Translations under genes and position numbers: made by a program
IMG/VR virus record: IMGVR_UViG_3300001605_000009
Length of the DNA stretch: 64,000 nucleotides
Origin: a virus
Lineage: Duplodnaviria; Heunggongvirae; Uroviricota; Caudoviricetes
Direction: 5' to 3' (one strand)
The notes under the pieces: generated by a model
Seen by the model: only the letters and a program-made list of their open reading frames with translations
Databases searched by the model: none
Told to the model about the DNA's origin: nothing
Shown: piece after piece, positions 6,173 to 63,347 of the stretch
How positions within the stretch are numbered: position 1 is the stretch's first letter
Layout of the letters: each line of letters opens with the position of its first letter

Positions 6173-6198
6173 ATTATCTCTCTGCTCTTGATAAAGCC

Positions 6199-6240
6199 AT
6201 TATATCTAAACTTAGGGTCAAAGTCAAGAAGTATTTTTAA
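6199..6240 (-). promoter_or_regulatory. sigma70-type promoter with TTGACT, a 17-nt spacer and TATAAT, upstream of the ligase C-terminal gene
   Basis: The reverse complement of the -35 hexamer is at 6222-6227 and of the -10 hexamer at 6199-6204. A-rich UP-like sequence lies upstream on the minus strand. Confidence 0.6.
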
Positions 6241-8770: not shown

Positions 8771-9136
8771 TTAAGCAAAGAGGCCTGCGAAGTAGATAGC
8801 AGCCTTGCCAGTCAACTTAGAAATAATATCTGAGTCTACTGTTTTACCAGCAGCTTCGATAGCTGCTACTAGTTGTGCTTGTGCGTCTTCCTTACTAACT
8901 CGTGTAGAAGCTGCCTTAGTTGTCTTTGTTGTCTTTGACTGACCACCTGAAGATGGAGCCGCTGGATCCTTCTTAACGTATACGCCAGCCTTGCTGAGAA
9001 TCATACGAACGCCATTAACGCTCTCTTCCATATCTTCAGCAATTTCTGCTACAATATCCATTGAATTTTCTGGCGTTGGCTCAGCCTTTTCATACATAGA
9101 AATAGCTTGTGCCTTACGTTCATCTGTCCATGCCAT
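8771..9136 (-). CDS. small helix-turn-helix protein, member of the window-wide paralog family
   Basis: The motif IAEDMEESVNGVRMILSKAGVY is shared with the ORFs at 36761, 57769, 60752 and 4697. A consensus promoter and a ribosome-binding site lie upstream. Confidence 0.55.
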   Translation of the reverse strand: MAWTDERKAQAISMYEKAEPTPENSMDIVAEIAEDMEESVNGVRMILSKAGVYVKKDPAAPSSGGQSKTTKTTKAASTRVSKEDAQAQLVAAIEAAGKTVDSDIISKLTGKAAIYFAGLFA

Positions 9137-9295: not shown

Positions 9296-9508
9296 TTAGT
9301 TGTAGAGGTCTCGTGCATCAGCTTCATTATTGAATACTGCGCAACCACAATACCTCATAGTGTGCCTACGGAAATGCTTATCAAAATAAGCATTATGACT
9401 TGCTAGGTCTTCGCAAGCCTCTTTCAAAGTTTCACCCTTACCGTAGCCCAGGTGACAGGCTGTGTAGTCTCGGCGTGGGTCGCCCTCACACCAGATTTCC
9501 ATTAACAT
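9296..9508 (-). CDS. hypothetical Cys-rich small protein
   Basis: ORF only. Confidence 0.3.
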   Translation of the reverse strand: MLMEIWCEGDPRRDYTACHLGYGKGETLKEACEDLASHNAYFDKHFRRHTMRYCGCAVFNNEADARDLYN

Positions 9509-9600
9509 GCTACTCTCCTTAGATAAACAGAATAGCGTAAAATAGAATGGAAGTCAAGGATAGAATTAAGTCTAGCCCTATACGAGTTACAATAATTTCT

Positions 9601-14600: not shown

Positions 14601-17600
14601 TAACCCCAGTAACTGTTCTTCCAGCAATCGTAAGATTGTTAAATACATTGCTACCTCTAATACTATTAACGACTGATTCAGCGGAACCACCTGAGGTAAA
14701 ACTTACATTATAATAGGTTTGTTCGCCTCCATTAAATGATTGACTGGCAGCACTCAAGTTAATCGTTGATGTTCCACTTGATAAAGTAAGACCTGTTGGT
14801 ACCGTAATATCCCACCCACCAGAAGATAAAGTAATAGTTGAAGACCCCAAAGTCAACGATCTGGTATTACTATTACTACTAGAAACAGATCCTGCAGTAA
14901 CATTAAAGTTACTAGTGCTGAACGAGCCGTTAGTTAGCGTTAATGTGTATGTACTTAAATTGATAGCGTCAGCAAGAGTCCACTCTCCGCCAATACCATT
15001 GAATGTAATTGGACACCCCAATGCTTTACCACTAGAAGTGATTATTTTACCGGCAGATGTTGATGCAAATGTTCTCACACCTGCGCCAGCAGTAACAGTC
15101 ATGCCTGTTGATAACGTCAGATTACCGTAGATTGTAATGGCACTATTTGGCCAAGTACCCGCAAAACCAGTAAATACTAGATTTCTTACGTTTCCAGTAA
15201 CAGTAGTAGAGCTTGTTCCTGCGGTGATATTAAACGATACACTGTTAGATTCAGATGGAGAACCCGCGATAATAGTTCTAGCTGTTGCAGTAGCGTTAGT
15301 TACGTTTACAATAGGAGTTCCTGTTACTGTCATATTGTATACGTTTGTAGCATCCCATACTGTACCAGTCCCATTAAGAGTTAAGGAGCCATAATTAAAA
15401 GCTAAGGTTCTTGCGCTGTTTGAATTTGTTATAAAAGCAGGACATGAATGATTATTTCCATTCAAATCTAAATATCCAGCCGCAAGTCTTATAGTACTAG
15501 TAGAAGTAGTACCAGTTGATAACTGACCAGTAAGAGTCCATCGTCCAAACAGTCCATTAAAAACTATAGGGAATCCTAGGGTTTTTCCATTTGGATTAAT
15601 AGTATTACCAGTATATGTTGATAAGAATGAAACAGTATTCGTACCAGCAGCCACTGTCATTCCAGTTGATACAGTAAGACTTCCATAAATTCCTAACGCT
15701 ACATTAGTCCATGAGCCTGCAAATCCAGTGAAGTCTAGGTTTTTTATTCTGTTATTAGCAGTGAACGTAACAGGGCCAGTTCCTGCAGTGATATTAAAGG
15801 AAAAAGCATAATCTTCCGACCATACTCCGGCAGAGATCGTCCTAGTAAGAGATGTAACGGCAGTGACATCTACTCTTCTTAGGCCAGAAGTAGTTAAATT
15901 AGTTACTGTAGCAGTATTCCAAATAGTACCAGTTCCCTCTAGTTTTAAATACCCAGTAGACCCAAACATAATAGACCTAGTATTAGAATTACTAGATGAA
16001 AAGGAATTTAGAGATAAAGAGTACTCATTTAAATCAAGTGTACCATTAGTTAGCGTAAGCGACCCCATTCCTGTATTAGTAACATTTACTTTTATTGTAC
16101 TGTTGTAGGCGTCTATATTAGTAATATTTGTAGGTTGATAGCCTACTAATTGGATTTTATTTACTCCGATATAATTTAAAGTACAGCCGATACCCGCAGA
16201 AACACCCATCATATTATTATTACTTCCACACCAGTAAGTAGTAGTCGTGCCATAGGATAAGGTAAAAAGAGTCGATCTAGCGGTGGTATCATAAGTACCA
16301 ATATACCAATTCTGATCAAGAGTAAGAGTACTCCCAGCACTATTGTCATCCACAATACACGTATCTTGTACTAATGGAAAATTAGCAGCATCTGGGGTGC
16401 CACCAGAAGTCAATGCCCAGCCTGGTGAAGACCAGTTACTAACTCCTGGACGGTTCCAATATACGGTTTTTGGCGCTGCAAATGTGATGAGAGAGTTTCC
16501 TCCTGCGTCACCTAAACTAGTGCCGGACCATGTAGCTGTCCCAGATCCTGTAATGTAGCGAAAGTCTACATTCGAAAGGTCCGTTGAAGCTGCGGTAATA
16601 ACTCTAGGGCTGCCTGTTTGGTTACTTTGTAGTAATGTTCGATTTAGTAGTTCAGTACTAGATACAGTTAATGTACTAGTAATTACTACATCACCACCTA
16701 AATATGTAGGCGTTACTCCTACTGAGTCCCTGGCTGGGATATTTAAATTAATAAAAGTTATGGTAGGAGAAGGACTATTAACTGAACTACCAATACTATA
16801 TCCAAATGTATTTGCAGTAAAATTAACAGTACCAAAACTCTGCCCATCTGGAAGAAAGTTTACAATAGCCGCAGTATGCGTACAATTAATAGTAGATGAA
16901 ATACCACTAAAAGTTAGCTCTGTTGAGTTAAAAGTTATAGGTGACTGCCCATTTAGTGTTACAGTAGAAGTACCTAATGTTATTGATCTAATGTTAGAAT
17001 TACTAGACGAAATACTGCCCGCAGTTACATTATAGTTACCTGTGTCAAACGAACCCTTAGTGACTGTGATTTGATTCGTTCCAATATTCAACGCATCTTG
17101 CAGAGTCCACCCACCACCAACACCATCAAAAGTAGCAGGGCCGTTTAATGTGACGCCATTAGATGTAATGGTCTTACCTGTAGAAGTGGCTGCGAATGTA
17201 AGTGATGTATACGCGGCTACTGTTTGACCAGTTCCAAGAGTCAGGTTTCCATATATAGTACCCGCTGTTGGAATCCATGCTCCACTAAACCCAGTGAAGT
17301 CTAGATTCTTAAAGGTACTCGTGCTGGTTGATACGTTTCCTGTTCCGGCTGTGACATTTACAGATGCTTCAGAGAGTGCACCTGTGGTAATTGTTCTGGC
17401 TGTTGCTGATGAGTTAGTCAGATTGACTGTAGGGAACCCCGATATAGCTATAGAAGAGGTCGTATTGAATACTGTGCCAGTTCCCGATAATGATACAATA
17501 CCCGATGTACCAAAATTTAGTGTTCTAGCAGACAGACCAGTAGAAACGAATAATCCCGTTGTGAGTGTGAAGTTATTCAGGTTTAATGTACCAGAGTTTA

Positions 17601-18600
17601 ACGTGGTAGTTCTAGTCGAACCTACGGTAAACGCATCCTGAAGTGTCCATACACCTGTACCATTAAAGTTAATGGGAAAATCTAATAATTTACCATTGGT
17701 TGTAATTGTTCTACTGACATTTGCAAAAAATGTCCAGGCTCTTGTACCCGCAGTCAGTATCATAGTAGGGGATAATATTAAATTTCCATATATGCTTATA
17801 GCAATATTACTTACAGTACCGCTAAATCCAGTAAAGTTTAAATTGTTCACGCGATTGTCTGCGGTGAAAGTAACAATATCTGTTCCGGCAGTAAAGTTAA
17901 AACTTAATTCAGTAGCATTCGCTCCCGCATTTATAGTTCTTGTCCCAGTAGATCCAGAATAAGTGCAGTTAATTGTCGGTGTTCCAGAAACTTTTAATCC
18001 AGTTTGAGTAGCTGCATCAAAAATAGTTGTACCAGAGCCAGTAAGCGTTAAGTCTCCAGTACCAAAGTTAAATGTTCTCGTAGTAGATCCGGAGATATTG
18101 GCTGTTAACGCGGTAAATTTATTAGTGCCTATCGATAGAGTACCCACCGTAAGGGTAAGTGTACTGCTCGTAGAAAATGCCCCGTTTAGGGTAACTGTAA
18201 TAGAGTTGCCATTTACTACTACAGGACTACTAATTATTGAAGTACCAGTATTACATATAGCAGTGGTACCATTGAAGGATAGTGAGCCTGTGTTTGTCCA
18301 ATTAATAGTTCCAGAAATAGTAAGTCCAGAAGTAGTCACAGATATATTACTTGATCCATTAAAAGTCAAAGTGCCTGCTGATGGGTTTGCCATATTAATA
18401 CCAAGAACTGATGTAGTAGCAGTTCTTGTTACTGTGTAGGATGCTCCAGACCCTGCAACATTAGACTCAGAGTCAAAAATGGCAACATCGGCAGTAGTTG
18501 GAACGGCAGCACCTCCAGTTCCTCCAGATGTAAGTGACCAATTAGTTGTGTTCGTAGCATCCCAGGTACCTGTGCCGCCTACCCAATATTTATTAGCCAT
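11626..18600 (-). CDS. giant repetitive Ser/Thr/Gly/Asn-rich structural protein (2324 residues), likely a tail fibre or adhesin with beta-helix-like modules
   Basis: A single ORF of 2324 residues. The module KTVYWNxxGxxxWSxxGWAxxxGGTPxxxNFPLxQDT occurs four times and the module NL(D/V)FTGF(S/A)G(T/A)W at least five times. Composition is low-complexity beta-rich. The gene lies next to small fibre-like genes. Confidence 0.8.
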   Translation of the reverse strand: MANKYWVGGTGTWDATNTTNWSLTSGGTGGAAVPTTADVAIFDSESNVAGSGASYTVTRTATTSVLGINMANPSAGTLTFNGSSNISVTTSGLTISGTINWTNTGSLSFNGTTAICNTGTSIISSPVVVNGNSITVTLNGAFSTSSTLTLTVGTLSIGTNKFTALTANISGSTTRTFNFGTGDLTLTGSGTTIFDAATQTGLKVSGTPTINCTYSGSTGTRTINAGANATELSFNFTAGTDIVTFTADNRVNNLNFTGFSGTVSNIAISIYGNLILSPTMILTAGTRAWTFFANVSRTITTNGKLLDFPINFNGTGVWTLQDAFTVGSTRTTTLNSGTLNLNNFTLTTGLFVSTGLSARTLNFGTSGIVSLSGTGTVFNTTSSIAISGFPTVNLTNSSATARTITTGALSEASVNVTAGTGNVSTSTSTFKNLDFTGFSGAWIPTAGTIYGNLTLGTGQTVAAYTSLTFAATSTGKTITSNGVTLNGPATFDGVGGGWTLQDALNIGTNQITVTKGSFDTGNYNVTAGSISSSNSNIRSITLGTSTVTLNGQSPITFNSTELTFSGISSTINCTHTAAIVNFLPDGQSFGTVNFTANTFGYSIGSSVNSPSPTITFINLNIPARDSVGVTPTYLGGDVVITSTLTVSSTELLNRTLLQSNQTGSPRVITAASTDLSNVDFRYITGSGTATWSGTSLGDAGGNSLITFAAPKTVYWNRPGVSNWSSPGWALTSGGTPDAANFPLVQDTCIVDDNSAGSTLTLDQNWYIGTYDTTARSTLFTLSYGTTTTYWCGSNNNMMGVSAGIGCTLNYIGVNKIQLVGYQPTNITNIDAYNSTIKVNVTNTGMGSLTLTNGTLDLNEYSLSLNSFSSSNSNTRSIMFGSTGYLKLEGTGTIWNTATVTNLTTSGLRRVDVTAVTSLTRTISAGVWSEDYAFSFNITAGTGPVTFTANNRIKNLDFTGFAGSWTNVALGIYGSLTVSTGMTVAAGTNTVSFLSTYTGNTINPNGKTLGFPIVFNGLFGRWTLTGQLSTGTTSTSTIRLAAGYLDLNGNNHSCPAFITNSNSARTLAFNYGSLTLNGTGTVWDATNVYNMTVTGTPIVNVTNATATARTIIAGSPSESNSVSFNITAGTSSTTVTGNVRNLVFTGFAGTWPNSAITIYGNLTLSTGMTVTAGAGVRTFASTSAGKIITSSGKALGCPITFNGIGGEWTLADAINLSTYTLTLTNGSFSTSNFNVTAGSVSSSNSNTRSLTLGSSTITLSSGGWDITVPTGLTLSSGTSTINLSAASQSFNGGEQTYYNVSFTSGGSAESVVNSIRGSNVFNNLTIAGRTVTGVNYLQFNANQTINGTLNIGAGTGPAYRTWLLSQVFDTQITLTVAAISSLVDVDFRDIVVAGTSGNWSGTRLGDCGNNSNITFESSKTVYWNLTGTVNWSANGWATSSGGTPAVNNFPLAQDTAIFDNTGAATTVTFDGLYNTGTINMSARTTVMTLAFGSSTQFVYSDFILGTGVTPTTLTGQLAFLGYTKTQTLNTAGKSFPIAIASYSPSTTVLLGGAFTSTNAINLVGNLDTSNYSVSATTINASEYATINLNGSTVTLSATGTAWQALSTNTINAGTSTIVLTSTTPTFTGGDKTYYNVTFNNTAINTANITGVNTFNNLNIAGRTGSVGISQVIFGGGNQTVNGTLTIGAGTSAIYRTFLQSNTQGTARTITANAISALTDVDFRDITAAGAAGTWTGIRLGDCGNNTNITTSTPKTVYWNLLGNSLWTATAWATTAAGTPAVANFPLAQDTATFTNTGVASTLTINANWNIGTLNYSSRTTASTLAIGTTSPDIYGNVTLYSGLTITGTGVVTFNKSGATQTITSAGVTWPTGINVYNTNSGTTKLGSALTCSGTVSIYTGTLDLNGFTATVSSLQPAVSASIYDFPAIAFGSSAINITGNNGTILYMEVSGGNFNYTGIPTVNLTYSGSTGTRTIFAPGMTETTCFDINITAGSDIISFSTGGVPSIRNYNDTGFTGTYNMASKVNIYGNMTNNSAVLTGFVNFLATSGTKTLTINTTSNACGAFLTFNCPGAIYQLGSAINLAYYSYGATLNTTGGMILKAGTFNANGYDVTVPEFSSSYTSSRALIMGSGNWTIVPYNLTYLQYLIDVSAYSALIPIFGWDISDPTNLTLDKGTANIICTTYSIPVEYQFYGGDQTYNNFTVTPSSTTLQRSTLSIYGNNTFDTMSNTVKPTTIKFEGGSTQTFSSFNISGDSSSLVTITSTNTTPAILKKSTAWNVGANSTNGGNNTGLSFTGTSPNYLSISYITGSIIGAIKKLGAFLAFF

Positions 18601-25003: not shown

Positions 25004-25397
25004 GGTACTTTTCCTTATTATCAGAAGAGAAATAAATACGCTCTTCTTCTTCAGAGAGAGGTCTACTCATTGGAGTATTCTTCTCGTCCCTCCAACACAG
25101 ATGGTTGGTATTCTCAAAAGGTATAAGCCAAGGTGTCATTAATTTCTCCGTGTAAGTGCGGCGGGTTCTGTTTCTAGGTTCCGCCAGACCCAAGAAGAAT
25201 CAAGCTACTAGAGCTAGACCTTCAAATGCTGAGTTATCGTTAGCATTTACTTTTTGTGGCTCTTTGCCAGTCAATAGTCTCGGCGTTCCCTATTACACGA
25301 AAATCGATCCCTGGTCGCCCCCATCATAGAATATCGGACTGTGTAGGTACCAATACACGAGACACTGATAAACGGTCAGGCTCTTCCCAATATTCTA

Positions 25398-25425
25398 TGG
25401 TGGAGGCGGCGGGAATTGAACCCGC
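25398..25425 (-). ncRNA. tRNA/tmRNA 3'-end-like element (T-arm, acceptor 3' strand and CCA) with no matching 5' half
   Basis: The minus strand reads GACGCGGG-TTCAATT-CCCGCCGCCTCCACCA. This matches the 3' end of bacterial tmRNA and tRNA closely. No complementary GGAGGCG was found within plausible distance. Confidence 0.4.
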
Positions 25426-25454
25426 GTCTTTTCGTCTTTATTGTCGGCTGTCAG

Positions 25455-25497
25455 CGACTATATACTCGTTATAACAAAAGTTACAACAAAAGTCAAG
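25455..25497 (-). promoter_or_regulatory. sigma70 promoter (TTGACT, 17-nt spacer, TATAAC) firing into the tRNA/tmRNA-like fragment
   Basis: The minus strand reads aaaaatatttcTTGACTtttgttgtaacttttgtTATAAC, about 45 nt upstream of the fragment. Confidence 0.5.
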
Positions 25498-29851: not shown

Positions 29852-30110
29852 CTAGAATTCTATGCGCGCGGGTAATATCACGACACCTAATAATGGCGTC
29901 CAACTCAGCGTGAAGAAACACCTTGTGGTCCAGACCCACCTTTTTAGCATGACGAGCCTGCTTAGGGTGAGTCTTTACATAAGAATTCTTACCAATACTA
30001 AGTACGCGACCTTTCTTATCAAAGATGGTCGCTGTAATGTGCTGAGTTTGACGCCTACTCATATTAGTCCCAGAGACTCCTAAAGTATTTTCCGAAAAGC
30101 CTAGTTCCAT
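29742..30110 (-). CDS. dCMP/cytidine deaminase (zinc-dependent); the true start is probably the internal Met near 30062
   Basis: HAELDAI (HAE) and PCPVCQSAI (PCxxC) zinc-binding motifs. The upstream part overlaps its neighbour. Confidence 0.65.
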   Translation of the reverse strand: MELGFSENTLGVSGTNMSRRQTQHITATIFDKKGRVLSIGKNSYVKTHPKQARHAKKVGLDHKVFLHAELDAIIRCRDITRAHRILVARITRSGKYGNAKPCPVCQSAIEEAGIKNVEWTSD

Positions 30111-30693
30111 TGGCTATACGATCATCATAAGCTTTTTTAGCATCCCAGTCAACACTATAAGTATGCTTTGGTCCATAATTTAGCTTATATAGTCCGTTCT
30201 CGGCCGGACCCCACTGGTAGTCAGACTCTCCAGTAGAAAAGTCTTCCGGGTATTCTTCAACAATCTGAGTGAAAGCCCAGATCATTTCGTCCATAACCCA
30301 ATTCCAGCGATCTTCTCCACCTTTTAAGGAACCCCAGTCTTCCTTCTCTTCACTACGAAGATGTTCTGGAACCTCCTCGTTATCCACAGTACTAAAGCCG
30401 TGATTAGTATCTTTAAGTTGCTTCAGTCCAGGAAGAATAATAAGTGCTAAAGTGTGATCTAGGCTGAATGTATCATACGAATGATACTTAATCTCTACTT
30501 TGCGGTTCCTATTCAATTTTCTAACAAAGACTTTGTTGATGAAGTCTAAAGGAACCAGAACTAGCTTATCGTACCAAGTATGGTCTTTTTCTCCAATATC
30601 AACCCACTTGTCTCCGTACATATACTCTAGGTACAAGCACTCTAGTTTATGGGTTGATAGCCAACTTCTATACGGTCCAATATTAACTTTCAT
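30064..30693 (-). CDS. hypothetical protein
   Basis: ORF only. Confidence 0.35.
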   Translation of the reverse strand: MKVNIGPYRSWLSTHKLECLYLEYMYGDKWVDIGEKDHTWYDKLVLVPLDFINKVFVRKLNRNRKVEIKYHSYDTFSLDHTLALIILPGLKQLKDTNHGFSTVDNEEVPEHLRSEEKEDWGSLKGGEDRWNWVMDEMIWAFTQIVEEYPEDFSTGESDYQWGPAENGLYKLNYGPKHTYSVDWDAKKAYDDRIANGTRLFGKYFRSLWD

Positions 30694-43262: not shown

Positions 43263-43531
43263 ATTCTTTTGTATCGCTGTCGTAACGTAGAAATGACTAT
43301 TTCCCATAGAAACCAAGCACCAAATCCGCCAAATAAGACGTAGGCAGCTAGTGTCTCTCCTAAAAGGTATTCTATACCTAGTTCTACTCCAATTGATAGT
43401 CCACCGACTACTACCACAATAGCTAAAGTTCCTGCTAGAGCCACTCCTAGTAAGATAAAGAAGTCTTTACTTGGAGTAAGTGTCTTTTGTAATGCTTTCC
43501 AATTCATTCTGGCCCACTCCCGTTGCCCCAA
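43244..43531 (-). CDS. small membrane protein
   Basis: Two hydrophobic helices. Confidence 0.4.
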   Translation of the reverse strand: MGQREWARMNWKALQKTLTPSKDFFILLGVALAGTLAIVVVVGGLSIGVELGIEYLLGETLAAYVLFGGFGAWFLWEIVISTLRQRYKRISQGQK

Positions 43532-44160
43532 GCCTTGACAGGCCCAACATATCCTACTACTTCCCAGCGATCCTTAATACGAGCTTCTACTTCGTCGAAG
43601 GACAGAGGCTCGTAGTTAGTGTGCTCTACAGATACACAGAGATAACGCGGGTCAGGAACAGATACTGACTTATATTCACTAGGGTGGGAACTATGGTAAT
43701 CGCTCCAGCCTTTGGATACCATTTTATGCCTAGTCTGCATTACTTCATTGGCATGAAGGTGCCCATGCACGTTAACCTTAAATCGGTCAGTTACGCAGTC
43801 TGGATGCAGCGGAATATGGCTAAGAATAAACTTATCCACAAACACACGAACACCATACATCTTTTCAAAGCCAACTTCCCGATAGTACTTATCATGAAAA
43901 ATATCATGATTACCGCGTACTAGACGCTTCTTACCATTAAGACGTTTTACTAGCTCTAGTGAAGGCTTCTTGATGACAACATCACCAAGATGGTAGACGG
44001 TGTCCTGCGGGCTTACTTTAGCATTCCAACGCTCGATCATGGCCTCGTCCATTTCTTCGTTAGAAGAGAACGGACGTAGAGGATCCCCATTGGGAAGCTT
44101 AAACTTCTGCCACGAATTAGTGTGCCCGAAATGGGTATCACTTATAACAAAGCTGCTCAT
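43504..44160 (-). CDS. calcineurin-like metallophosphoesterase (candidate RNA 2',3'-cyclic phosphodiesterase or 3'-phosphatase in the RNA-repair cluster)
   Basis: Phosphoesterase motifs DTHFGH, GDVV, GNHD and HGHLH. Confidence 0.65.
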   Translation of the reverse strand: MSSFVISDTHFGHTNSWQKFKLPNGDPLRPFSSNEEMDEAMIERWNAKVSPQDTVYHLGDVVIKKPSLELVKRLNGKKRLVRGNHDIFHDKYYREVGFEKMYGVRVFVDKFILSHIPLHPDCVTDRFKVNVHGHLHANEVMQTRHKMVSKGWSDYHSSHPSEYKSVSVPDPRYLCVSVEHTNYEPLSFDEVEARIKDRWEVVGYVGPVKAWGNGSGPE

Positions 44161-55461: not shown

Positions 55462-55500
55462 TTTTATATTGCAAAAGCGTTGCAAAGTCAGAGGAAATCA

Positions 55501-55818
55501 ATGGAAGAAAAACTAGACAAAATTATATCACTACTAGAGGAGTTAGTTTATAACTCTAAACACTATAACGGATATGTTAAATGGTCCTACGAACAGGAAG
55601 AATTTCTAGATATTATGTTTACAGCAGGGCACGATGTTCCAGAATTAATAAAGCTCATTAAAGAAAAATTTGGTATTGATAGATCAGCCGGGGCCATATG
55701 CTCTAGACTAAGTAAGCTTGGACTAAATAAGCCTATTGAAAAGAAACGAGTCATTGAAAAGAAAGAGTCTACTACTATAGAAGATATTTTTGACCTACTA
55801 CCGTGGGAAGTAGAATGA
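55501..55818 (+). CDS. helix-turn-helix protein (plus-strand member of the paralog family)
   Basis: The ATG at 55501 has a ribosome-binding site upstream. Motif IKEKFGIDRSAGAICSRLSKLGL. Confidence 0.5.
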   Translation: MEEKLDKIISLLEELVYNSKHYNGYVKWSYEQEEFLDIMFTAGHDVPELIKLIKEKFGIDRSAGAICSRLSKLGLNKPIEKKRVIEKKESTTIEDIFDLLPWEVE

Positions 55819-56324
55819 GCGTAGATAATATTAGAAACAATCCGCGATGGACCGCAGAAGAAGAAGAGAAACTGTGTAGGGCTGTATCCGCTTACTCGGA
55901 TTGGGACGAAGTCCCATACGCTAGTATTCAGGACAAATACTTCCCACACCGATCTGTGTCAGCTCTGCAAGCTAAGTATCTTCGTACTAAAGATAAATAT
56001 TCCTTCTATCAGTGGAGTGATAACGCATCTAAAAATGTGTTCAGAATGTACCTGGATGGGGCCTCCATCGGTCAAATTCACACTAAGATGATAGAAGTGG
56101 GACTAACTGGAGCGAGCCCACGAGATATTGAGCTAGAGATAGAAAGGCTTCGAGGGATTCTCTCTAGTAAGGTTAGGACTTATGCCGAAGAGCATGGACT
56201 TAGGCCAACTAAGAGATATTCGCTGGAACAGCTCCAAGCTTTCGCCAAATTCAAAGCTCCCGAGGGCAACTCCTTCGCAGCTAAAGCCGCTATTGCAGCG
56301 CTTCATGAGATTATTAATGGCTAG
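55803..56324 (+). CDS. Myb/SANT-like helix-turn-helix repeat protein
   Basis: WTAEEEEKL and a helix-turn-helix motif of the paralog-family type. Confidence 0.45.
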   Translation: MGSRMSVDNIRNNPRWTAEEEEKLCRAVSAYSDWDEVPYASIQDKYFPHRSVSALQAKYLRTKDKYSFYQWSDNASKNVFRMYLDGASIGQIHTKMIEVGLTGASPRDIELEIERLRGILSSKVRTYAEEHGLRPTKRYSLEQLQAFAKFKAPEGNSFAAKAAIAALHEIING

Positions 56325-56637
56325 AGGCTGGACACCACAAGAGGATGAATTACTACTTAGACTTCGAGACGAAGGTCTCACAGCTAGGGAGATTGCTCTT
56401 AGACTAGAGCGCAGTGCTGGAGCAATCAGAATGAGAGCTTCACTACTAGCTGAGGACAAGCAGAAACGCTGGACTGAAGCTGATAAGCAGCTAGTATTTC
56501 AACTTAAATCTGAAGGACATACTAACAAGTTTATTGCTATAAAACTGGGCAGAACAGCATCTTCAATTAGTACGTTTGTCTCTCGCAACTGGCATGTTGA
56601 ACAGGCTTCAACCGATGCTAGGAAAAATAATTCTTGA
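56317..56637 (+). CDS. Myb/SANT-like helix-turn-helix repeat protein (start set to the ATG at 56317)
   Basis: Motifs WTPQEDELLLRL, IALRLERSAGAIRMRASLL and IAIKLGRTASSISTFVSRNW. Confidence 0.45.
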   Translation: MARGWTPQEDELLLRLRDEGLTAREIALRLERSAGAIRMRASLLAEDKQKRWTEADKQLVFQLKSEGHTNKFIAIKLGRTASSISTFVSRNWHVEQASTDARKNNS

Positions 56638-57768: not shown

Positions 57769-58080
57769 TTAGGCACTCAGTTTCGAACGAAGTTCGACGA
57801 GTACCAACTTAGGAGCCTTCTCAAGACCATCGAGGCTGCGACCAACGAGGGCCGAAATCTCAGCTACAATGTCTTCCTTGCTCTCGATCTTACCGCCAGT
57901 CTTGCTGGTCTTGACCTTACCACGGTAGGAGCCGAGGCGGACTGCCTTAGCACGCACCGAGCGCACGTCCTTACCAAATTCAGCGGCGAGCATTTCTGCC
58001 GTAGCGTTGTCGATAACCTCGAATTCAGCGAGGCGGGCTTCTTGAGCGTCGGTGTAGTTCTTGATGATGGTCTTGGTCAT
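57769..58080 (-). CDS. helix-turn-helix paralog family member
   Basis: LAAEFGKDVRSVRAKAVRLGSYRGKVKTSKTGG aligns along its whole length with the ORF at 60752..61075. Confidence 0.55.
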   Translation of the reverse strand: MTKTIIKNYTDAQEARLAEFEVIDNATAEMLAAEFGKDVRSVRAKAVRLGSYRGKVKTSKTGGKIESKEDIVAEISALVGRSLDGLEKAPKLVLVELRSKLSA

Positions 58081-58310: not shown

Positions 58311-58339
58311 AAACTTTTAGCAGTGCTGGTCGGCTTTGG

Positions 58340-58380
58340 TTATTTTTTAACTTGACTTTGCATTGATTTGCCACTATAAT
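58340..58380 (+). promoter_or_regulatory. consensus sigma70 promoter (TTGACT, 17-nt spacer, TATAAT) firing into a 470-bp ORF-free segment
   Basis: ttaacTTGACTttgcattgatttgccacTATAATtttggcgctgcgcgcc. Confidence 0.6.
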
Positions 58381-58716
58381 TTTGGCGCTGCGCGCCTTAC
58401 CAGACCTTCTTCGAGGTCATTTTCAGCACACGTAAAAATTGAACTTGCACTAGGTCGTCGCGGCGCTAAGGGGCTCGTTATAAGTTGCTCCCGCACTCTT
58501 CCTAGCAGGTAACTTTCGCACTAGCATTGCTTTCGCACTGGCGCAGGAACGCTGTTCTCGTTTTGTTCTCGGTTTGTTCCATGTGATGATATATCGTTAC
58601 GCTCATTTAACATAACATGCTTTCCCTGATTTAAGCTGCCTAAGTCATTGATATTACTAGATAAAACCGTTTAACATAATGCATTTTATCAAACCCATAT
58701 TTATTTTTCCTAGCTC

Positions 58717-58745
58717 TTGACAAATGTGTTGAAACCTGTTAAAAT
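58717..58745 (+). promoter_or_regulatory. island plus-strand promoter cassette (TTGACA, 17-nt spacer, TAAAAT, then CGGCGC), copy 1
   Basis: cTTGACAaatgtgttgaaacctgtTAAAATcggcgc. A TG dinucleotide at -15/-14 gives an extended -10 element. Confidence 0.6.
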
Positions 58746-58932
58746 CGGCGCTAGGCCATTTTCGGCGCTGTCACATCCATTATAGCAGGTTTTAATGGGC
58801 TTGTCAATAGGAAAAATCGCCTGTGGATAAATATATTCTAGCGCGGCCTGACCGAACAAAACGGGAACAAAAATTTCGGCGCATTCAGCGCGCTATTTTC
58901 AGTATAGCATATGCCAAAAATGCTGTCAAGCG

Positions 58933-58973
58933 AAAAAAATGCTCCAGAACCAGTCTGGAGCATTTTCTTTTTC
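58933..58973 (-). terminator. bidirectional rho-independent terminator
   Basis: ATGCTCCAGA-ACCAGT-CTGGAGCAT flanked by an A6 tract and a T tract. Confidence 0.75.
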
Positions 58974-59175
58974 AGTCCTTCACTTCAACGTCGATAGTAA
59001 AGGATAGTTCGACTTCTTTATATAACTTGACGTTATAAACACTTACGCCATTTTTTACTTCCTCTTTAATGTCGTCTAGTATGTCTGCTAGTGACTCACT
59101 ATAGTAACTGCCAGTCACACCGCCAGTAATGCCCAAGATTTCAGCATAAAACATAATACTTAATCCTTTTTCCAA
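58972..59175 (-). CDS. hypothetical small protein
   Basis: ORF followed by a terminator. Confidence 0.4.
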   Translation of the reverse strand: MEKGLSIMFYAEILGITGGVTGSYYSESLADILDDIKEEVKNGVSVYNVKLYKEVELSFTIDVEVKD

Positions 59176-59214
59176 AGTTGGGGCAAGTAATCATTACTTG
59201 CCCCGTTTCTGTTT

Positions 59215-59940
59215 TTACTTGACCGTGAAGTGATCCCGAACGGCGAAGTCACGATAGTTGTATGGCGGCGGATTCATATAGTCAGACGGTGAAGTATTTT
59301 TGACTAATGCCGTAAGAATAGGCACCTCGTAATACTTGGCGTCTTCTAGTGCCGTATGTGGTTCGTCTGGCAATCCCGCGCCTAGCAGAAATTTTGCCAT
59401 AACATCGGCATTAGTTTGCACGCCCATATGCCCTGTTTTACTTGTGCGATTGCCGAAATAGTGATTCTGCAAAGCAAAGTTAAGAAAAGCGCGAGTATTG
59501 CCCCACTTAGCAGCGGCAGCGTGCCACAAACAAAATTGACTAGGGAACAAATCATTGGCAATAATGCCAGACTTGTTCATCTTATCACGGTCGAAAGCCA
59601 AGTTATAGGCTGTCATAACAGGCGAGTACTTAGCGGCAATCTTGCTAAGTACGCGATTAACAGCACCAACGCTTGCCAATACTCGCGTTCCGTCTTGTAG
59701 CATTTGCTCATAAGCGGCGTAGCGCGCGGGCAGGCTTTCCTTGCTGAAAACATCGCCCTTATCCCCGAAAACATGAAACAGAGGGTGCGCCTCTTTATCG
59801 CTGAAAAAGTCGCCAATTAGAATGCCCATCTCATAATGGATGTTTCCTTGCTTGTCGGAAACAACGATGCCCATATCCGCGACCATATTGGTTTGCGTTG
59901 TTTCCGTGTCAATTGTCAAGAAAAACTTTTTCTTACCCAT
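59215..59940 (-). CDS. DEDDh 3'-5' exonuclease (DnaQ/RNase T-like)
   Basis: Exo I FLTIDTETT, Exo II YNLAFDRD and Exo III HTALEDA motifs. Confidence 0.75.
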   Translation of the reverse strand: MGKKKFFLTIDTETTQTNMVADMGIVVSDKQGNIHYEMGILIGDFFSDKEAHPLFHVFGDKGDVFSKESLPARYAAYEQMLQDGTRVLASVGAVNRVLSKIAAKYSPVMTAYNLAFDRDKMNKSGIIANDLFPSQFCLWHAAAAKWGNTRAFLNFALQNHYFGNRTSKTGHMGVQTNADVMAKFLLGAGLPDEPHTALEDAKYYEVPILTALVKNTSPSDYMNPPPYNYRDFAVRDHFTVK

Positions 59941-59998
59941 TTTTCGTTCCTTTGCCCTTTGGGTCTTTCAGGAGAGCCTTGCGCCCTCTTGATGCTCT

Positions 59999-60045
59999 CT
60001 TATACCTAGCGAATCGTTGCCCGTCAAGAAAAACTTTTCCACAAT
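59999..60045 (-). promoter_or_regulatory. sigma70 promoter (TTGACG, 17-nt spacer, TATAAG) with an upstream DnaA-box-like TTTTCCACA
   Basis: The minus strand reads TGTGGAAAAgtttttcTTGACGggcaacgattcgctaggTATAAG. Confidence 0.55.
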
Positions 60046-60061
60046 TTATTTATTTTTGCTC

Positions 60062-60090
60062 TTGACAGATTGATTGGACCCTGTTAAAAT
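60062..60090 (+). promoter_or_regulatory. island plus-strand promoter cassette, copy 2
   Basis: cTTGACAgattgattggaccctgtTAAAATcggcgcc, with a terminator hairpin starting about 10 nt downstream. Confidence 0.6.
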
Positions 60091-60098
60091 CGGCGCCA

Positions 60099-60131
60099 AT
60101 AAACCCTTGAAAAACAAGGGTTTATTTTGTT
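60099..60131 (+). terminator. rho-independent terminator
   Basis: AAACCCTTG-AAAAA-CAAGGGTTT followed by ATTTTGTT. Confidence 0.65.
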
Positions 60132-60136
60132 GGCTG

Positions 60137-60538
60137 CTATACTATCGGAAACACAAGTATTGCAAGCAATATAGAATTGAGAGCAAAGCCAATGCCATTA
60201 GAGACAATATAGAGCATATCCTTTTGATATACTGCTCGCCACAAGTAAAGCGCCAAGCCAACCCAAGTCAAGAGTACCATTGATAGTGGTGGCATAGTGG
60301 TGTTATATCCGGCAATTTTTCCGACCATAGTGGGAACAGTATTGCTATGCAGCATAACCATTGCAAGCCAGCCAGCAATTTCAGGGGCTGGCATATTGCG
60401 AATTTTTTGAAAAAACATTGACTTTTCCTTTTTCTTGGGAAAATTCCCATAAGCCGCGTCATGCAAACAAGCCGCCACTAGATCATTGCCTAGTGCCCGT
60501 TCCCGCTTGCTTGCCGCTAGAAGTTCGTTTTTCGTCAT
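60137..60538 (-). CDS. membrane protein with C-terminal transmembrane helices
   Basis: A 133-residue ORF with a hydrophobic C-terminal half. Confidence 0.45.
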   Translation of the reverse strand: MTKNELLAASKRERALGNDLVAACLHDAAYGNFPKKKEKSMFFQKIRNMPAPEIAGWLAMVMLHSNTVPTMVGKIAGYNTTMPPLSMVLLTWVGLALYLWRAVYQKDMLYIVSNGIGFALNSILLAILVFPIV

Positions 60539-60607
60539 GCCCTCTTATGGACTAGGCCAGCCGACCCGTCAAGAAAAACTTTTCCACAAATAAAAATAAA
60601 TAAGCTA

Positions 60608-60636
60608 TTGACAAACCCTAGCGCGTCTGCTAAAAT
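60608..60636 (+). promoter_or_regulatory. island plus-strand promoter cassette, copy 3
   Basis: aTTGACAaaccctagcgcgtctgcTAAAATcggcgcc. Confidence 0.55.
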
Positions 60637-60704
60637 CGGCGCCTCCAGCCGGATTTTTTGGCGCTAATACAATTATAACAGAATCAAAAGGCTTTGTCAA
60701 GCCC

Positions 60705-60742
60705 AAAAAACAAATAAAAAAAGTGGGGGATTTCTCCCCCAC
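60705..60742 (-). terminator. rho-independent terminator (minus strand only)
   Basis: GTGGGGGA-TTTC-TCCCCCAC followed on the minus strand by TTTTTTTATTTGTTTTTT. Confidence 0.75.
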
Positions 60743-60751
60743 CCTATTGAC

Positions 60752-61075
60752 TTATGCGGAAAGCCGTTCCCGAAGGATTTGCAAGGCCAGCTTAGGGGCC
60801 TTTTCCAGTCCGTCCATATTTTTCTGGACAAGTGCCGCAATGTCTGCAACAATGTCTTCCTTGGTTTCGACTGGGCCGCCAGTCTTGCTGGTCTTTTCCT
60901 TAGCCTTATAAATGCCCATGCGAGTTGCCTTAGCGCGAATTGAGCGAACGTCCTTGCCGAGCTTTTCGGCCAATTCGATTGCCTTATCATTGTCAATGAT
61001 GCCAGCGGCCAAGAGAACAGCCTCTTGTTCAGCCGAGTAGTTCTTGACGGTTTCGGTTTTTGCAGTAGCAGCCAT
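60752..61075 (-). CDS. helix-turn-helix paralog family member
   Basis: LAEKLGKDVRSIRAKATRMGIYKAKEKTSKTGG is co-linear with the ORF at 57769..58080. Confidence 0.55.
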   Translation of the reverse strand: MAATAKTETVKNYSAEQEAVLLAAGIIDNDKAIELAEKLGKDVRSIRAKATRMGIYKAKEKTSKTGGPVETKEDIVADIAALVQKNMDGLEKAPKLALQILRERLSA

Positions 61076-61208
61076 GAGAAAATTTCCTTTTTATCTCGAA
61101 GGGCCTATCCCCTCTTGATGTACTCTTATACCGCGCGTTTGCATGTCTGGCAAGAGAAAAATGCACGAAAGCCGAAAAAACTTTTCCACAGTACATTTAT
61201 TTTTGCTC

Positions 61209-61237
61209 TTGACAGGCTCTAGGAAACCTGCTAAAAT
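61209..61237 (+). promoter_or_regulatory. island plus-strand promoter cassette, copy 4
   Basis: cTTGACAggctctaggaaacctgcTAAAATttggcgcc. Confidence 0.55.
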
Positions 61238-61287
61238 TTGGCGCCAATAGGCCTTCAGAAATCTTTTCGCTTGACACGTTTTTTCGC

Positions 61288-61316
61288 TTGACACGGCTGG
61301 CGTTCCGTCCTATAGT
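61288..61316 (+). promoter_or_regulatory. additional plus-strand promoter (TTGACA, 17-nt spacer, TATAGT) inside a tandem 17-bp duplication
   Basis: The sequence cgcTTGACAcg occurs twice. The second copy is followed by a 17-nt spacer and TATAGT, and about 70 nt further on by a terminator. Confidence 0.5.
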
Positions 61317-61354
61317 GAGAGTAGCGGGCAAAATTTTCGGCGCCTTTGGCACAT

Positions 61355-61390
61355 TTAAAAGGTGGGAACAAGTCCCACCTTTTACTTAAT
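61355..61390 (-). terminator. bidirectional rho-independent terminator
   Basis: AAAAGGTGGGAACAAGTCCCACCTTTT. Confidence 0.7.
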
Positions 61391-61598
61391 GTGCTCTGTA
61401 ATCAAGTATAGATTGCAATTCGATTATTTCCCGCAATGTCCTTTGTTTCTCCATGTTTGCAGTATAAAGATCAACAATGATTGACGAAATCAGATCCTCT
61501 TGTAGTGCTAGTTTGTCCTCTGCACAGTCAAGCTGCAATTCTAGTGGTTCCTCGTTCATGCCGCTAACTTTCCGTTTTGCTTTACAGCGTTGAAACAA
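61386..61598 (-). CDS. hypothetical small protein
   Basis: ORF with a terminator at its end. Confidence 0.4.
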   Translation of the reverse strand: MFQRCKAKRKVSGMNEEPLELQLDCAEDKLALQEDLISSIIVDLYTANMEKQRTLREIIELQSILDYRAH

Positions 61599-62029
61599 GT
61601 AATACCGATTGAAAGCATTGCGTCAATTACTTTCAAGTTATCGTCAAACATAATTGCGCAAGCATCCTTTGCACAAGAAAAGCCTTCGCCCGCAAAGTAT
61701 GCTTCTAGCAGATCAACTTTCAATTGCGCGTCCCCGCGCATATCGTTAACGCCGCGCGACAAGAAAACATCATGTTCTAGTCCATGCTTTTCAAGGAACA
61801 AATGGTTGCTTTCATGTGGCGAACGCGCCGTGCAAATGATAACCGTATGGCCAGCCTTTTTAATCTGTTTCATGCTTTTTGCAAGTGGCAAAAGCGAGTC
61901 ACCCATAATTTTCTCATGGGTATTATTCTCCAGCCAGTGCGCAAGATTAAGCGAGCCATCGGGCAACGTGTTTTGACGGTGGCTTGAGTCGATAACCGTG
62001 CCATCCAAGTCGAAAATTACATAAGCCAT
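61556..62029 (-). CDS. HAD-superfamily 5'-nucleotidase (deoxyribonucleoside 5'-monophosphatase-like, comparable to T5 dmp)
   Basis: HAD motif I FDLDGTV at the N-terminus. The gene is small and located in a pre-early-like island. Confidence 0.65.
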   Translation of the reverse strand: MAYVIFDLDGTVIDSSHRQNTLPDGSLNLAHWLENNTHEKIMGDSLLPLAKSMKQIKKAGHTVIICTARSPHESNHLFLEKHGLEHDVFLSRGVNDMRGDAQLKVDLLEAYFAGEGFSCAKDACAIMFDDNLKVIDAMLSIGITCFNAVKQNGKLAA

Positions 62030-62122
62030 TTTGCTAGTCCTTGCTGTCTTGATGCCCCATTATTGCCAGAAAAGCGGCATAGCGTCAAGAAGTTTTTATC
62101 CACAATTAAAAATAATTTGCTA

Positions 62123-62151
62123 TTGACAACCTATAAAAATCCTGCTAAAAT
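62123..62151 (+). promoter_or_regulatory. island plus-strand promoter cassette, copy 5, with a perfect DnaA box 20 nt upstream
   Basis: aTTGACAacctataaaaatcctgcTAAAATcggcgct. TTATCCACA is at 62096-62104. Confidence 0.55.
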
Positions 62152-62160
62152 CGGCGCTAA

Positions 62161-62197
62161 TTAAGCCTTTGAAAACAAAGGCTTAATTGCTTGTTTA
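62161..62197 (+). terminator. rho-independent terminator
   Basis: TTAAGCCTTTG-AAAAC-AAAGGCTTAA followed by TTGCTTGTTT. Confidence 0.6.
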
Positions 62198-62635
62198 ATC
62201 TATGGGGCAAGAGGACTGGCAGCTCTTGCTTGCCCACCAAACCGTTTCCGGTCTTGACAGCCGATTAAAAGTGCGAATGTCAAGTAAAATTGGCTCTCCC
62301 GAATGTTCGCTAGTCGCCAGCTTTTCCACCTTGTCAAGCCAGCGATTAGAGTATTCTGCGTCAGCTAATATGTATTCAATTGGGCAGCCGTCAAACATAT
62401 CGTATTTGAATGTTTTAGAGAATGCAATAACGCTAGAGCGATCAAAAGAAAAGCGCGCCTTTGGTGGGTTTACTAGCCCAAACCAACGCCTAGTGCTAGA
62501 ACGCTTTTCTTCTGATTTGACCCAGCTATTGACTTGTTTGTCAGTTTCTACAGTGACTTGATGCACAATTTCAAGGCGGCAATCCTCTACCATTGCCAGA
62601 AGTGAAGCCTTAGTGACTGGAACAAAACCCTTCAT
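62195..62635 (-). CDS. hypothetical protein
   Basis: ORF only. Confidence 0.4.
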   Translation of the reverse strand: MKGFVPVTKASLLAMVEDCRLEIVHQVTVETDKQVNSWVKSEEKRSSTRRWFGLVNPPKARFSFDRSSVIAFSKTFKYDMFDGCPIEYILADAEYSNRWLDKVEKLATSEHSGEPILLDIRTFNRLSRPETVWWASKSCQSSCPID

Positions 62636-62835
62636 GCATAATTCCTTTGAATAAAGCGATCACCAAAACGATCAAGAGCGAGAATCTGCCAATCATCACT
62701 TTCATAGTCGATATCTATATCGTAGTCAAGCGGTTCTGCAACAAAAAACAGATCACAATCCCATGCTTCCGTGCTAGCATTATCTGCTAAGTGCCAGTCA
62801 AGAGGTTCGTTCATTGCTTCATTCCTTGTTTCCAT
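62632..62835 (-). CDS. small acidic protein
   Basis: A 67-residue Asp/Glu-rich ORF containing DYDIDIDYESDDW. Confidence 0.4.
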   Translation of the reverse strand: METRNEAMNEPLDWHLADNASTEAWDCDLFFVAEPLDYDIDIDYESDDWQILALDRFGDRFIQRNYA

Positions 62836-62882
62836 GAATCCACCTTAGACAATAAAAAACGCCTGTCAAGAAATCTTTTCTC

Positions 62883-62910
62883 TTGACAAAATAAAATAAC
62901 CTGCTAAAAT
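62883..62910 (+). promoter_or_regulatory. island plus-strand promoter cassette, copy 6 (16-nt spacer)
   Basis: cTTGACAaaataaaataacctgcTAAAATcggcgc. Confidence 0.5.
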
Positions 62911-62975
62911 CGGCGCATCTGAGCCAAAAAATTCGGCGCTACTACCATTATAGCATGAAGCTAAATTGTTGTCAA

Positions 62976-63009
62976 ATAAAAAATAAGGCCTGAAGGCCTT
63001 ATTTTTTAG
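62976..63009 (-). terminator. bidirectional rho-independent terminator
   Basis: AATAAGGCC-TGAA-GGCCTTATT flanked by an A6 tract and a T6 tract. Confidence 0.7.
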
Positions 63010-63194
63010 TTCTCCACAACTCTAGCGGCCTTATATTGGGCCGCTTTCATGAAACGCTTAGCCTTATCCAAGGCGTCGCGGGCCTCGCCAGCAGTGTCAA
63101 AATATTGTGCCCGTTCGATCCTTCCAGCAAAGGTCCATACCGTGCCGCGCAGGTAGCAGATGCCTTGTGGTGTGGTCAGTTGAACAGTGAACAT
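63006..63194 (-). CDS. hypothetical small protein
   Basis: ORF only. Confidence 0.35.
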   Translation of the reverse strand: MFTVQLTTPQGICYLRGTVWTFAGRIERAQYFDTAGEARDALDKAKRFMKAAQYKAARVVEN

Positions 63195-63282
63195 TGCTTA
63201 TCTCCTTGCTGATGAATTAACCCTAGGCCATAGCAGTCCCAATGTCTAGCAGTATTTATCCACAAGCAAATTTTATTTGCTC

Positions 63283-63310
63283 TTGACAAACTATAGAAAA
63301 CCTGTCAAAA
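63283..63310 (+). promoter_or_regulatory. island plus-strand promoter cassette, copy 7 (-10 hexamer CAAAAT), with a perfect DnaA box at 63256-63264
   Basis: cTTGACAaactatagaaaacctgtCAAAATcggcgcc, with a hairpin immediately downstream. Confidence 0.45.
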
Positions 63311-63347
63311 TCGGCGCCAATGGGAGGCTTTGCAGCCTCCCATTTTG

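Follow-up and report, generated by a model that had tools for sequence, protein, structure and literature searches.

Single DnaA-type boxes in the bidirectional promoter modules of an uncultivated T5-like phage

The 64,000-nt stretch of DNA analyzed here in full (the window), IMG/VR virus record IMGVR_UViG_3300001605_000009, is judged by its gene content to come from an uncultivated T5-like phage, a distant relative of T5. It includes most of an island of small minus-strand genes that runs from ~57 kb to ~67.1 kb and is probably the pre-early region, likely the first to be expressed, and in the intergenic spaces of this island lie repeated bidirectional promoter modules in which a single nine-nucleotide DnaA-type box sits between two back-to-back promoters, at distances that are fixed almost to the base pair. 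Sequence conservation among distant relatives indicates that the box is very probably a functional cis-element of the module. As its ligand, the DnaA protein of the host is predicted to be the likeliest candidate, an assignment that we put forward tentatively.

Six boxes lie within 4.4 kb of the island and all six are intergenic. Three are perfect copies of TTATCCACA, at 58822-58830 on the minus strand and at 62096-62104 and 63256-63264 on the plus strand, precisely where an earlier sequence-only reading of this DNA had placed them. The other three are copies of TTTTCCACA (the mioC/R5 type) on the plus strand, at 60035-60043, 60580-60588 and 61182-61190; the same reading had listed these as eight-of-nine variants at about 60035, 60585 and 61177, so that the variants are real and two of the coordinates were about 5 nt off. 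The five plus-strand boxes are upstream of, respectively, a gene for a 241-amino-acid (aa) exonuclease-like protein (60035), a 133-aa gene (60580, where the box is also inside the leader of a consensus promoter at 60700), the gene for a 107-aa DNA-binding protein (61182), a homologue of the T5 pre-early gene dmp (62096) and a 62-aa gene (63256). The inverted copy at 58822 is in a 660-bp non-coding stretch, 14 nt upstream of the -35 hexamer of a consensus minus-strand promoter (58807 to 58779). All six boxes match the stringent DnaA consensus TT(A/T)TNCACA.

Counting the exact nine-mer on both strands, as the sequence-only reading had proposed, shows it to be enriched: the 64-kb window has five copies of TTATCCACA where 0.63 are expected, and none of 100 shuffles reaches five. 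The relaxed form TTWTCCACA, which takes in the six boxes above, occurs eight times against an expectation of 1.37, and again no shuffle of 100 reaches the observed number. The count covers 70 of the 106 kb of the source contig (ENA ERZ27315062 k141_509581, 106,419 bp), by way of a locus (L002) that is identical to the window and reaches window-equivalent coordinate 69,940; further extension of the contig gained only ~1 kb. The claim that perfect copies are confined to the island, with none in the other 57 kb, proves false, as TTATCCACA is also present on the plus strand at 30380-30388 and 43832-43840, inside the minus-strand open reading frames (ORFs) 30064-30693 and 43504-44160, the second of which is a homologue of the T5.034 Ser/Thr phosphatase. 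These two ORF-internal copies are probably chance occurrences, and their number fits chance. Because the island boxes are paralogous parts of a repeated module (families D1 and D2), their enrichment within the window is not by itself independent evidence of function; conservation across phages is.

The five plus-oriented boxes belong to one repeat family of 62–78 nt (D1/D2) and all have the same orientation within it. The canonical module, seen in four of the five, reads along the plus strand as GTCAA(G), which is the -35 hexamer of the sense promoter, then 7 nt, the box as YTWTCCACA, 18–19 nt of A/T-rich sequence, the antisense promoter and a hairpin. The antisense unit, TTGACA-N14-TGn-TAAAAT-(C/T)GGCGC(C), combines a consensus -35 with a 17-bp spacer and an extended -10, and it points against the genes. 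The distance from the box to this plus-strand -35 is 19 nt at 60580 and 18 nt in the other four modules, and that to the minus-strand -35 is exactly 7 nt at 60035, 60580 (TTGACG), 62096 and 63256 (TAGACA); at 61182 the antisense-side spacing is kept and the sense -35 (TTGCCA, 61148-61153) is ~30 nt away. The box is thereby centered near position -47 relative to the weaker sense promoter and near -58 relative to the strong antisense one, within the ~34-bp upstream region that the two -35 hexamers share. The sequence-only reading had put the boxes directly upstream of minus-strand -35 hexamers, which is correct for the four canonical modules and incorrect for 61182 and 58822; its choice of the minus-strand promoters alone as targets was incomplete, since the modules are bidirectional, and it had overlooked that a plus-strand -35 lies at a constant 18–19 nt from each of the five plus-strand boxes.

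Among 50,697 phage records no relative of the window was found at the nucleotide level (no megablast match of the 7-kb island), and a tblastn search with the 241-aa island protein found neither a cultured relative nor a host, returning only ~27%-identical matches in Enterococcus phages. Metagenomic relatives have island proteins that are 35–80% identical to those of the window, and their gene content varies. The locus L103 was found purely through similarity at the protein level (80% identity for the 241-aa protein), and it contains five perfect boxes in 12.7 kb where 0.06 are expected, while complete modules surround six of its boxes. Searching viral contigs for the promoter and GGCGC unit, without requiring the box, recovered a 92.9-kb relative, IMGVR_UViG_3300027673_000011 (the same as Ga0209278_1000145), whose slots hold TTATCCACA, CTTTCCACA or TTATCCCCA, and a metagenome scan added ~15 more modules on independent contigs; island proteins of the relatives from these scans have 35–76% identity to those of the window. 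Among non-redundant units of the box-bearing clade, the slot matches the box in at least seven of nine positions in 26 of 31, and in 13 of the 31 it is a perfect TTATCCACA. In the twelve modules retrieved without requiring the box, the box has 1.66 bits per column, to be compared with 1.94 for the plus-strand -35, 1.72 for the plus-strand -10, 1.26 for the sense -35 and 0.9–1.2 for the spacers; C5 is invariant in all of the unbiased modules (2.3 bits).

The spacings of the box to both promoters are the same in the relatives as in the window, and we dropped an earlier view that the box is phased with the plus-strand promoter only, as the relatives show phasing with both. The particular form of the box changes between phages at equivalent places. 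For example, the slot upstream of the 133-aa gene has TTTTCCACA in the window and TTATCCACA in L103, and that upstream of the 241-aa gene has TTTTCCACA in the window, TTATCCACA in L065 and L086, and CTTTCCACA in L096; a box fills this second slot in L065/L093 as well. The A/T-rich flank of 18–19 nt and the 7-nt flank vary freely in sequence among phages at ~50% protein identity. Conservation of the box is meaningful because neutral intergenic DNA would be lost at 35–80% protein identity. One box in L103 is flipped within its slot, and because of this and the inverted copy at 58822, the box is better explained as a factor site than as a core RNA polymerase element. Sister lineages place other operator-like elements in the same slot, which marks the slot as a regulatory position: L049 (reverse complement, 3164 and 4434) and L035 (reverse complement, 2462 and 4057) have a perfect 16-bp palindrome, ATTACAAATTTGTAAT, centered around -54 to -58; in L105 and L106 the slot contains two GAAAAAATYAATCG repeats, and in L059 and L025 it is empty. 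The near-identical strains L003–L007 have no single-nucleotide polymorphisms relative to the window and so provide no microdiversity footprint. Five loci from a box-pattern scan of viral contigs (L081–L085) were unrelated chance matches and were discarded. As the boxes are enriched in the window and conserved in relatives, the two properties on which the sequence-only reading had staked its proposal, the finding stands.

The site sequences themselves point to host DnaA. The two dominant forms, TTATCCACA (the oriC R1/R4 type) and TTTTCCACA (the mioC/R5 box), are both high-affinity DnaA types in E. coli, and variation in the box fits the DnaA rules in that position 3 is an A or a T and C5 is invariant. 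In the published DnaA consensus, TTWTNCACA, C5 is best in TTAT boxes and is the only base at that position that binds well in TTTT boxes, and the mioC promoter is repressed in proportion to the affinity of its box ("The DnaA Tale", PMC5835720). In cyanobacteria TTTTCCACA is likewise the consensus box, and for Cyanothece TTATCAACA has been predicted as an oriC box (PMC4674748). The one-mismatch variants TTATCCCCA and TTATCAACA, found in slots of the clade, are present in the T5 injection-stop (iss) region as well. The box motif is asymmetric and single, and a monomeric binder therefore fits. Host DnaA is further favored because only host proteins exist if the island is the first DNA to be expressed; no DnaA domain IV-like (DNA-binding) protein is present among the island proteins. 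Three functions had been offered for the boxes by the sequence-only reading, and DnaA-dependent promoter regulation is the best supported of them, through the fixed register, the conservation and the restriction to high-affinity forms, with DnaA as the putative ligand.

Several observations weigh against this assignment. About one quarter of the slots hold CTTTCCACA, which is outside the stringent TTWTNCACA at position 1, and TTATCCCCA and TTATCAACA are also just outside it. DnaA and its box are near-universal, yet sister lineages have swapped the box for other elements, and a lineage-specific, possibly phage-encoded factor fits this equally well; D5-like helix-turn-helix (HTH) regulators are in fact encoded beside the island, with homologues in box-bearing relatives. 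The metagenome scan, which supplied most of the metagenome loci, required TCCACA, so that positions 4–9 are biased in that subset. The island is called pre-early, a probable assignment, because of just three features, the dmp homologue, the adjoining terminase and the promoter class; a homologue of A1 was sought in 70 kb and none was found. Six protein-level relatives are all in metagenome-assembled genome bins with clashing taxonomy (Thiobacillus, Bdellovibrionales, Saccharibacteria, Flavobacteriaceae and others) and look like mis-binned phage contigs. All relatives are metagenomic, and DnaA is a putative ligand to which we give somewhat less than even weight.

The strongest alternative, although in our view an unlikely one, is that the box is the operator of some other sequence-specific protein and that its likeness to a DnaA box is coincidental. 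The protein could be a phage early regulator (D5-like/Myb/HTH, encoded at 55480-56637) or a host factor, and one possible role would be to silence the pre-early promoters, or to alter the balance among them, after early proteins have begun to be made. The lineage-variable slot, occupied by the box, the palindrome, the direct repeats or nothing, is what co-evolving pairs of regulator and operator would give, and a frequent variant, CTTTCCACA, is outside the stringent DnaA consensus. A candidate is available in HTH151, which matches the D5-like transcriptional regulator family (E=5e-17) and has homologues in the box-bearing L100, L103 and L092; its absence from box-less loci is uninformative, those loci being short fragments. 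However, it would be a notable coincidence for an unrelated operator to occur predominantly as the two highest-affinity DnaA types with an invariant C5, most HTH regulators bind dyads or repeats and not a single asymmetric motif, and the same variants recur among the T5 iss boxes.

Two further explanations are improbable, and about equally so. The first follows the model of Davison for T5, in which membrane-associated DnaA bound to the incoming first-step-transfer (FST) DNA pauses or anchors its entry, so that the boxes would control injection and not transcription. DnaA boxes have been known in T5 FST DNA since 1987 (Heusterspreute 1987; 10.1101/866236), and a comparison of 25 T5-like phages describes eight boxes, paired 3 bp apart, in inverted repeats of untranslated FST regions (Davison 2020 preprint, 10.1101/866236). 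The sequence-only reading was right about boxes near the T5 injection-stop region (they are at 9437-9518 and 6121-6202), and we confirmed the pairs directly in T5 as TTTTACACA-gac-TTATCCACA, TTATCCACA-gac-TTATCAACA and TTATCAACA-gac-TTATCCCCA. The genomic position would suit such a role, with a dmp homologue in the island, terminase genes adjoining it at a point where an assembly is expected to hold the collapsed terminal repeat, and the inverted copy (58822) within a repeat-rich non-coding stretch. But the defining paired and inverted-repeat architecture is not found: there are no box pairs 3 bp apart in the window and its extension or in L103, L093, L051 and L065, with three in the T5 control, and no inverted repeats of ~131 bp (IRC-spacer-IRD / IRD'-spacer-IRC') carrying boxes in the window, where the only box-containing inverted repeat is the 22-nt I9 (58812-58833 / 63253-63274). 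Moreover, the distance to promoter hexamers is set with base-pair precision for five of the six boxes, which anchoring would not need, and even for T5 a part for DnaA in injection is a proposal with no experimental support, the injection-stop model still being conjecture (10.1101/866236).

The second is that the box has no function of its own and either hitch-hikes as part of a duplicating or recombining promoter and stem-loop cassette, or belongs to an A/T-rich UP element. All copies are indeed in one repeat family and so are non-independent within the genome, early promoters in other parts of the genome are preceded by an AAAATAGTTC element whose position the A-rich half of the box overlaps, and box-less modules exist at 58717, 62883 and 63833. 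Against this, the G+C-containing CCACA core, which UP elements do not need, is as conserved as the -10 while both flanks vary freely, and enrichment is seen independently in L103. The last of the functions offered by the sequence-only reading, an origin-like one, taken here as a DnaA-dependent or transcription-activated replication origin, is recommended by a loose resemblance to transcription-activated origins (a DnaA-type box, an 18–19-bp AT-rich tract and a strong promoter giving a short hairpin RNA) and is very improbable, as there is one box per module with nearest neighbors at least 545 bp apart, no oriC-like box cluster and no AT-rich tract other than that promoter-upstream segment, no switch of GC skew at the site (cumulative skew decreases monotonically over 56–64 kb), a DnaB-like helicase, primase and polymerase of the phage's own, and, in T5, origins that map near the genome center (10.1101/866236).

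We propose that the boxes are conserved sequence-specific protein-binding elements, held in fixed register within the shared upstream region of bidirectional modules that lie between one single-gene unit of the probable pre-early island and the next. Host DnaA would already be in the cell as the phage DNA arrives, ahead of any phage protein, and between the two -35 hexamers it would occupy upstream DNA that, for both promoters, is expected to be contacted by the RNA polymerase alpha subunits. Bound DnaA would then decide how polymerase is shared between the two promoters, the strong antisense one and the weaker sense one, much as a single consensus box puts the E. coli mioC promoter under DnaA control. 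The mioC and dnaA promoters would suggest repression of the nearer promoter as the simplest case, with activation of the weak sense promoter from about -47 equally possible; the effect may thus be activation of the sense promoter or repression of either. The antisense transcript would start at or within the hairpin, and a polymerase parked on the antisense promoter might be a roadblock that finishes termination of the upstream gene, or a supercoiling activator of the divergent promoter. A more general scheme, which we consider doubtful, is that the clade builds its first-expressed region from insulated single-gene units joined by bidirectional modules with a plug-in operator slot at about -47/-58, filled by one host DnaA box here and by other operators in sister lineages, the antisense promoter and hairpin serving as a roadblock or supercoiling engine.

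On this doubtful scheme the phage would read the status of the host replication initiator in the first minute of infection, and if it is right, the long-puzzling DnaA boxes in T5 FST DNA may also be transcriptional and not injection-stop elements. The setting here is more interpretable than that of T5, in that the boxes are single, high-affinity, promoter-locked and conserved at ~50% protein identity, and it suggests that a host initiator protein is put to use in transcription as infection begins. The bidirectional module of 80 bp is also a compact object for synthesis and could be assayed in E. coli without isolation of the phage.

The antisense units, all on the plus strand, are at 60062-60096 (TTGACA-N14-TGt-TAAAAT-CGGCGC), 60608-60642 (convergent with the consensus minus-strand promoter that runs from 60700 to 60672), 61209-61244 (with TAAAAT-TTGGCGC), 62123-62157 and 63283-63317 (with a -10 of CAAAAT). 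The sense promoters next to boxes, on the minus strand, are weaker, with -10 hexamers of TATAAG, CATAAG, AATAAT or TAGGGT. That for the 241-aa gene is at 59999-60027 (TTGACG-17-TATAAG, families D6/D7) and is followed by a conserved initial-transcribed motif, ..CATCAAGAGGG; that for the dmp homologue is at 62059-62088 (TTGACG-18-AATAAT, with GGGGCATCAAGA), another is at 61125-61153 (TTGCCA-17-TATAAG, with AGTACATCAAGAGGGG), and a weak candidate is at 63220-63248 (TAGACA-17-TAGGGT). Box-side sense promoters have in common with early promoters elsewhere in the genome an initial-transcribed motif, ..CATCAAGAG.., which supports the view that they are real promoters. When 7.5 kb were scanned independently for the consensus, 29 promoter-like sites were counted where 11.6 +/- 3.3 are expected, among them all of the near-consensus sites listed.

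A strong hairpin always begins 2–4 nt past the CGGCGCC of the antisense unit, in the window as well as in the relatives L051 and L086–L103, its stem varying in sequence and its position fixed. In the window, hairpins are at 60099-60125 (directly after the CGGCGCC, also 3' of the upstream sense gene, and identical in L103 and L100), at 62158-62189 after the unit at 62123, and at 63320-63343 after that at 63283. These have a T-run on the plus (antisense) side, which predicts RNAs of ~35–45 nt, and in the sense direction the hairpin has no proper U-tract; most relatives have no T-run on either side.

The GGCGC element is a feature of the island in its own right. The motif (T-run)(C/T)GGCGC sits after the antisense -10 and is found on the plus strand between 57050 and 63870, for example at 58746, 58763, 60091, 60637, 60659, 61239, 61338, 62152, 62911, 62934, 63312 and 63862. 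There are 27 plus-strand copies of GGCGC in 70 kb, 19 of them in the island, and TT[TC]GGCGC occurs ten times on the plus strand (nine in the island) and not at all on the minus strand. It is kept even in distant box-less relatives, as TATAAT-TTTGGCGC in L105–L108, and none was seen in T5, whose major nick site CAAAAG|CGCAGG has only the GCGC core in common with it and the opposite flank polarity. Possible roles for the motif are those of discriminator, shut-off operator and nick site. This promoter class, TGnTAAAAT-CGGCGCC with a hairpin and directed against the genes, may be the more interesting feature of the island.

Other promoter arrangements are present in the same DNA. Near-consensus promoters face each other at 58717-58807, 60608-60700 and 62883-62975, and likewise in L100 and L103; the plus-strand member is TTGACA-17-TAAAAT and the minus-strand member TTGACA-17-TGnTATAAT, and their predicted starts are only ~18–20 bp apart. 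Two polymerases therefore could not sit on both promoters of a pair at once, and such pairs could be transcriptional-interference switches. In the short box-less module at 62862-62890 the divergent -35 hexamers make an 8-bp inverted repeat (TGTCAAGA...TCTTGACA), and the sense RNA would have a hairpin and then CGUUUUUUAU, a possible attenuator in the leader of gene 62632-62835. A second promoter class, AAAATA(G/A/C)(T/C)TC-TTGAC(T/A)-17-TATAAT/TATATT, is found outside the island at 6223, 9191, 11166 and 37539 on the minus strand and 25905, 55423 and 56624 on the plus strand, several members having ..ATCAAG.. just past the -10; it is probably an early class, distinct from the GGCGC class of the island.

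The relationship to T5 is seen in a family A polymerase with 44% identity to that of T5, together with a DnaB-like helicase, a split NAD-dependent ligase, NAD-salvage genes and D5-like regulators; a primase, 14 tRNAs and one tmRNA-like gene are also encoded. The tmRNA-like gene, at 25109-25490 on the minus strand, is an ARAGORN call flagged with an asterisk and has the tag ANDNSAFEGLALVA. A single ORF of 2324 aa (11626-18600, minus strand) lies beside a tRNA cluster. A search of Rfam at a permissive threshold gave chance matches only, all of them sub-threshold.

The island is bordered by early genes on one side and by the small terminase gene on the other, and in a T5-type genome a collapsed terminal repeat would assemble at such a junction. 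The dmp homologue within it, a putative deoxynucleoside-5'-monophosphatase (dNMPase) of 157 aa at 61556-62029 on the minus strand (PF26880), is 34% identical to the T5 protein (E=3e-15). A search for A2 in 70 kb gave a marginal match only, at 8942-9136. The best-conserved island gene (59215-59940, minus strand) is that of the 241-aa protein, with 45–80% identity in relatives, and its product looks like a DEDD-type 3'-5' exonuclease, having an N-terminal FLxIDTETT motif and invariant D, E and H columns across seven homologues. Two paralogous proteins of ~105 aa (57769-58080 and 60752-61075, minus strand) have weak matches to D5-like and DNA-binding PHROGs; their genes have in common a 131-nt repeat with 74% identity, and both are kept in most relatives. 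The non-coding segment 57381-57768 contains an inverted repeat, GCGAAGTCAACAT (57425 on the plus strand and 57536 on the minus strand), around two direct repeats of AAAAATAGTTCTTGACAC (57441 and 57500), as well as a palindrome, CGAACGAAGTTCG, at 57477 with a second copy at 57784, and is a candidate iss-, ori- or pac-like region. The 660-bp non-coding stretch (58311-58971) that holds the inverted box has (C/T)GCACT(A/G)G repeats at 58446, 58517 and 58534, with another at 57546, along with GTTCTCGTTTTGTTC repeats and two CGTTTAACATAA repeats.

Among known systems, the feature would behave most like a mioC-type DnaA-controlled promoter, a putative assignment made by analogy. The E. coli mioC promoter, and likewise those of dnaA and nrdAB, have one consensus high-affinity box just upstream of a sigma-70 promoter, and the mioC box, TTTTCCACA, is the same nine-mer as three of the boxes described here. 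The differences are that the box is here between back-to-back promoters at base-pair-fixed distances, that there are five to seven modules per phage genome, and that it is on phage DNA. The T5 iss boxes are alike in belonging to a T5-like phage and to DNA that is probably the first to enter or pre-early, and in having the same nine-mer and the same one-mismatch variants; but those of T5 are in pairs within long inverted repeats and long untranslated regions, whereas these are single, tied to promoters and 0.5–1.5 kb apart.

Two other phage systems offer partial parallels. The pR promoter of phage lambda is reportedly stimulated by DnaA (work of Wegrzyn and Szalewska-Palasz), which would similarly make the host protein a transcription factor at a phage promoter, as is putatively the case here; the lambda boxes, however, are downstream of the promoter, and lambda is temperate and has no repeated modules. 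The promoter-early stem-loop (PeSL) cassettes of T4-type phages, said to have been described by Arbiol and colleagues in 2010, are repeated intergenic units of an early promoter and a stem-loop that flank small variable ORFs in a plastic region of the genome. A repeated promoter and stem-loop unit between small ORFs is present here too (families D1, D2, D4 and D9, with the hairpin position fixed), whereas the cassette of this phage is bidirectional, contains a DnaA-type box and a GGCGC motif, and has its strongest promoter directed against the genes.

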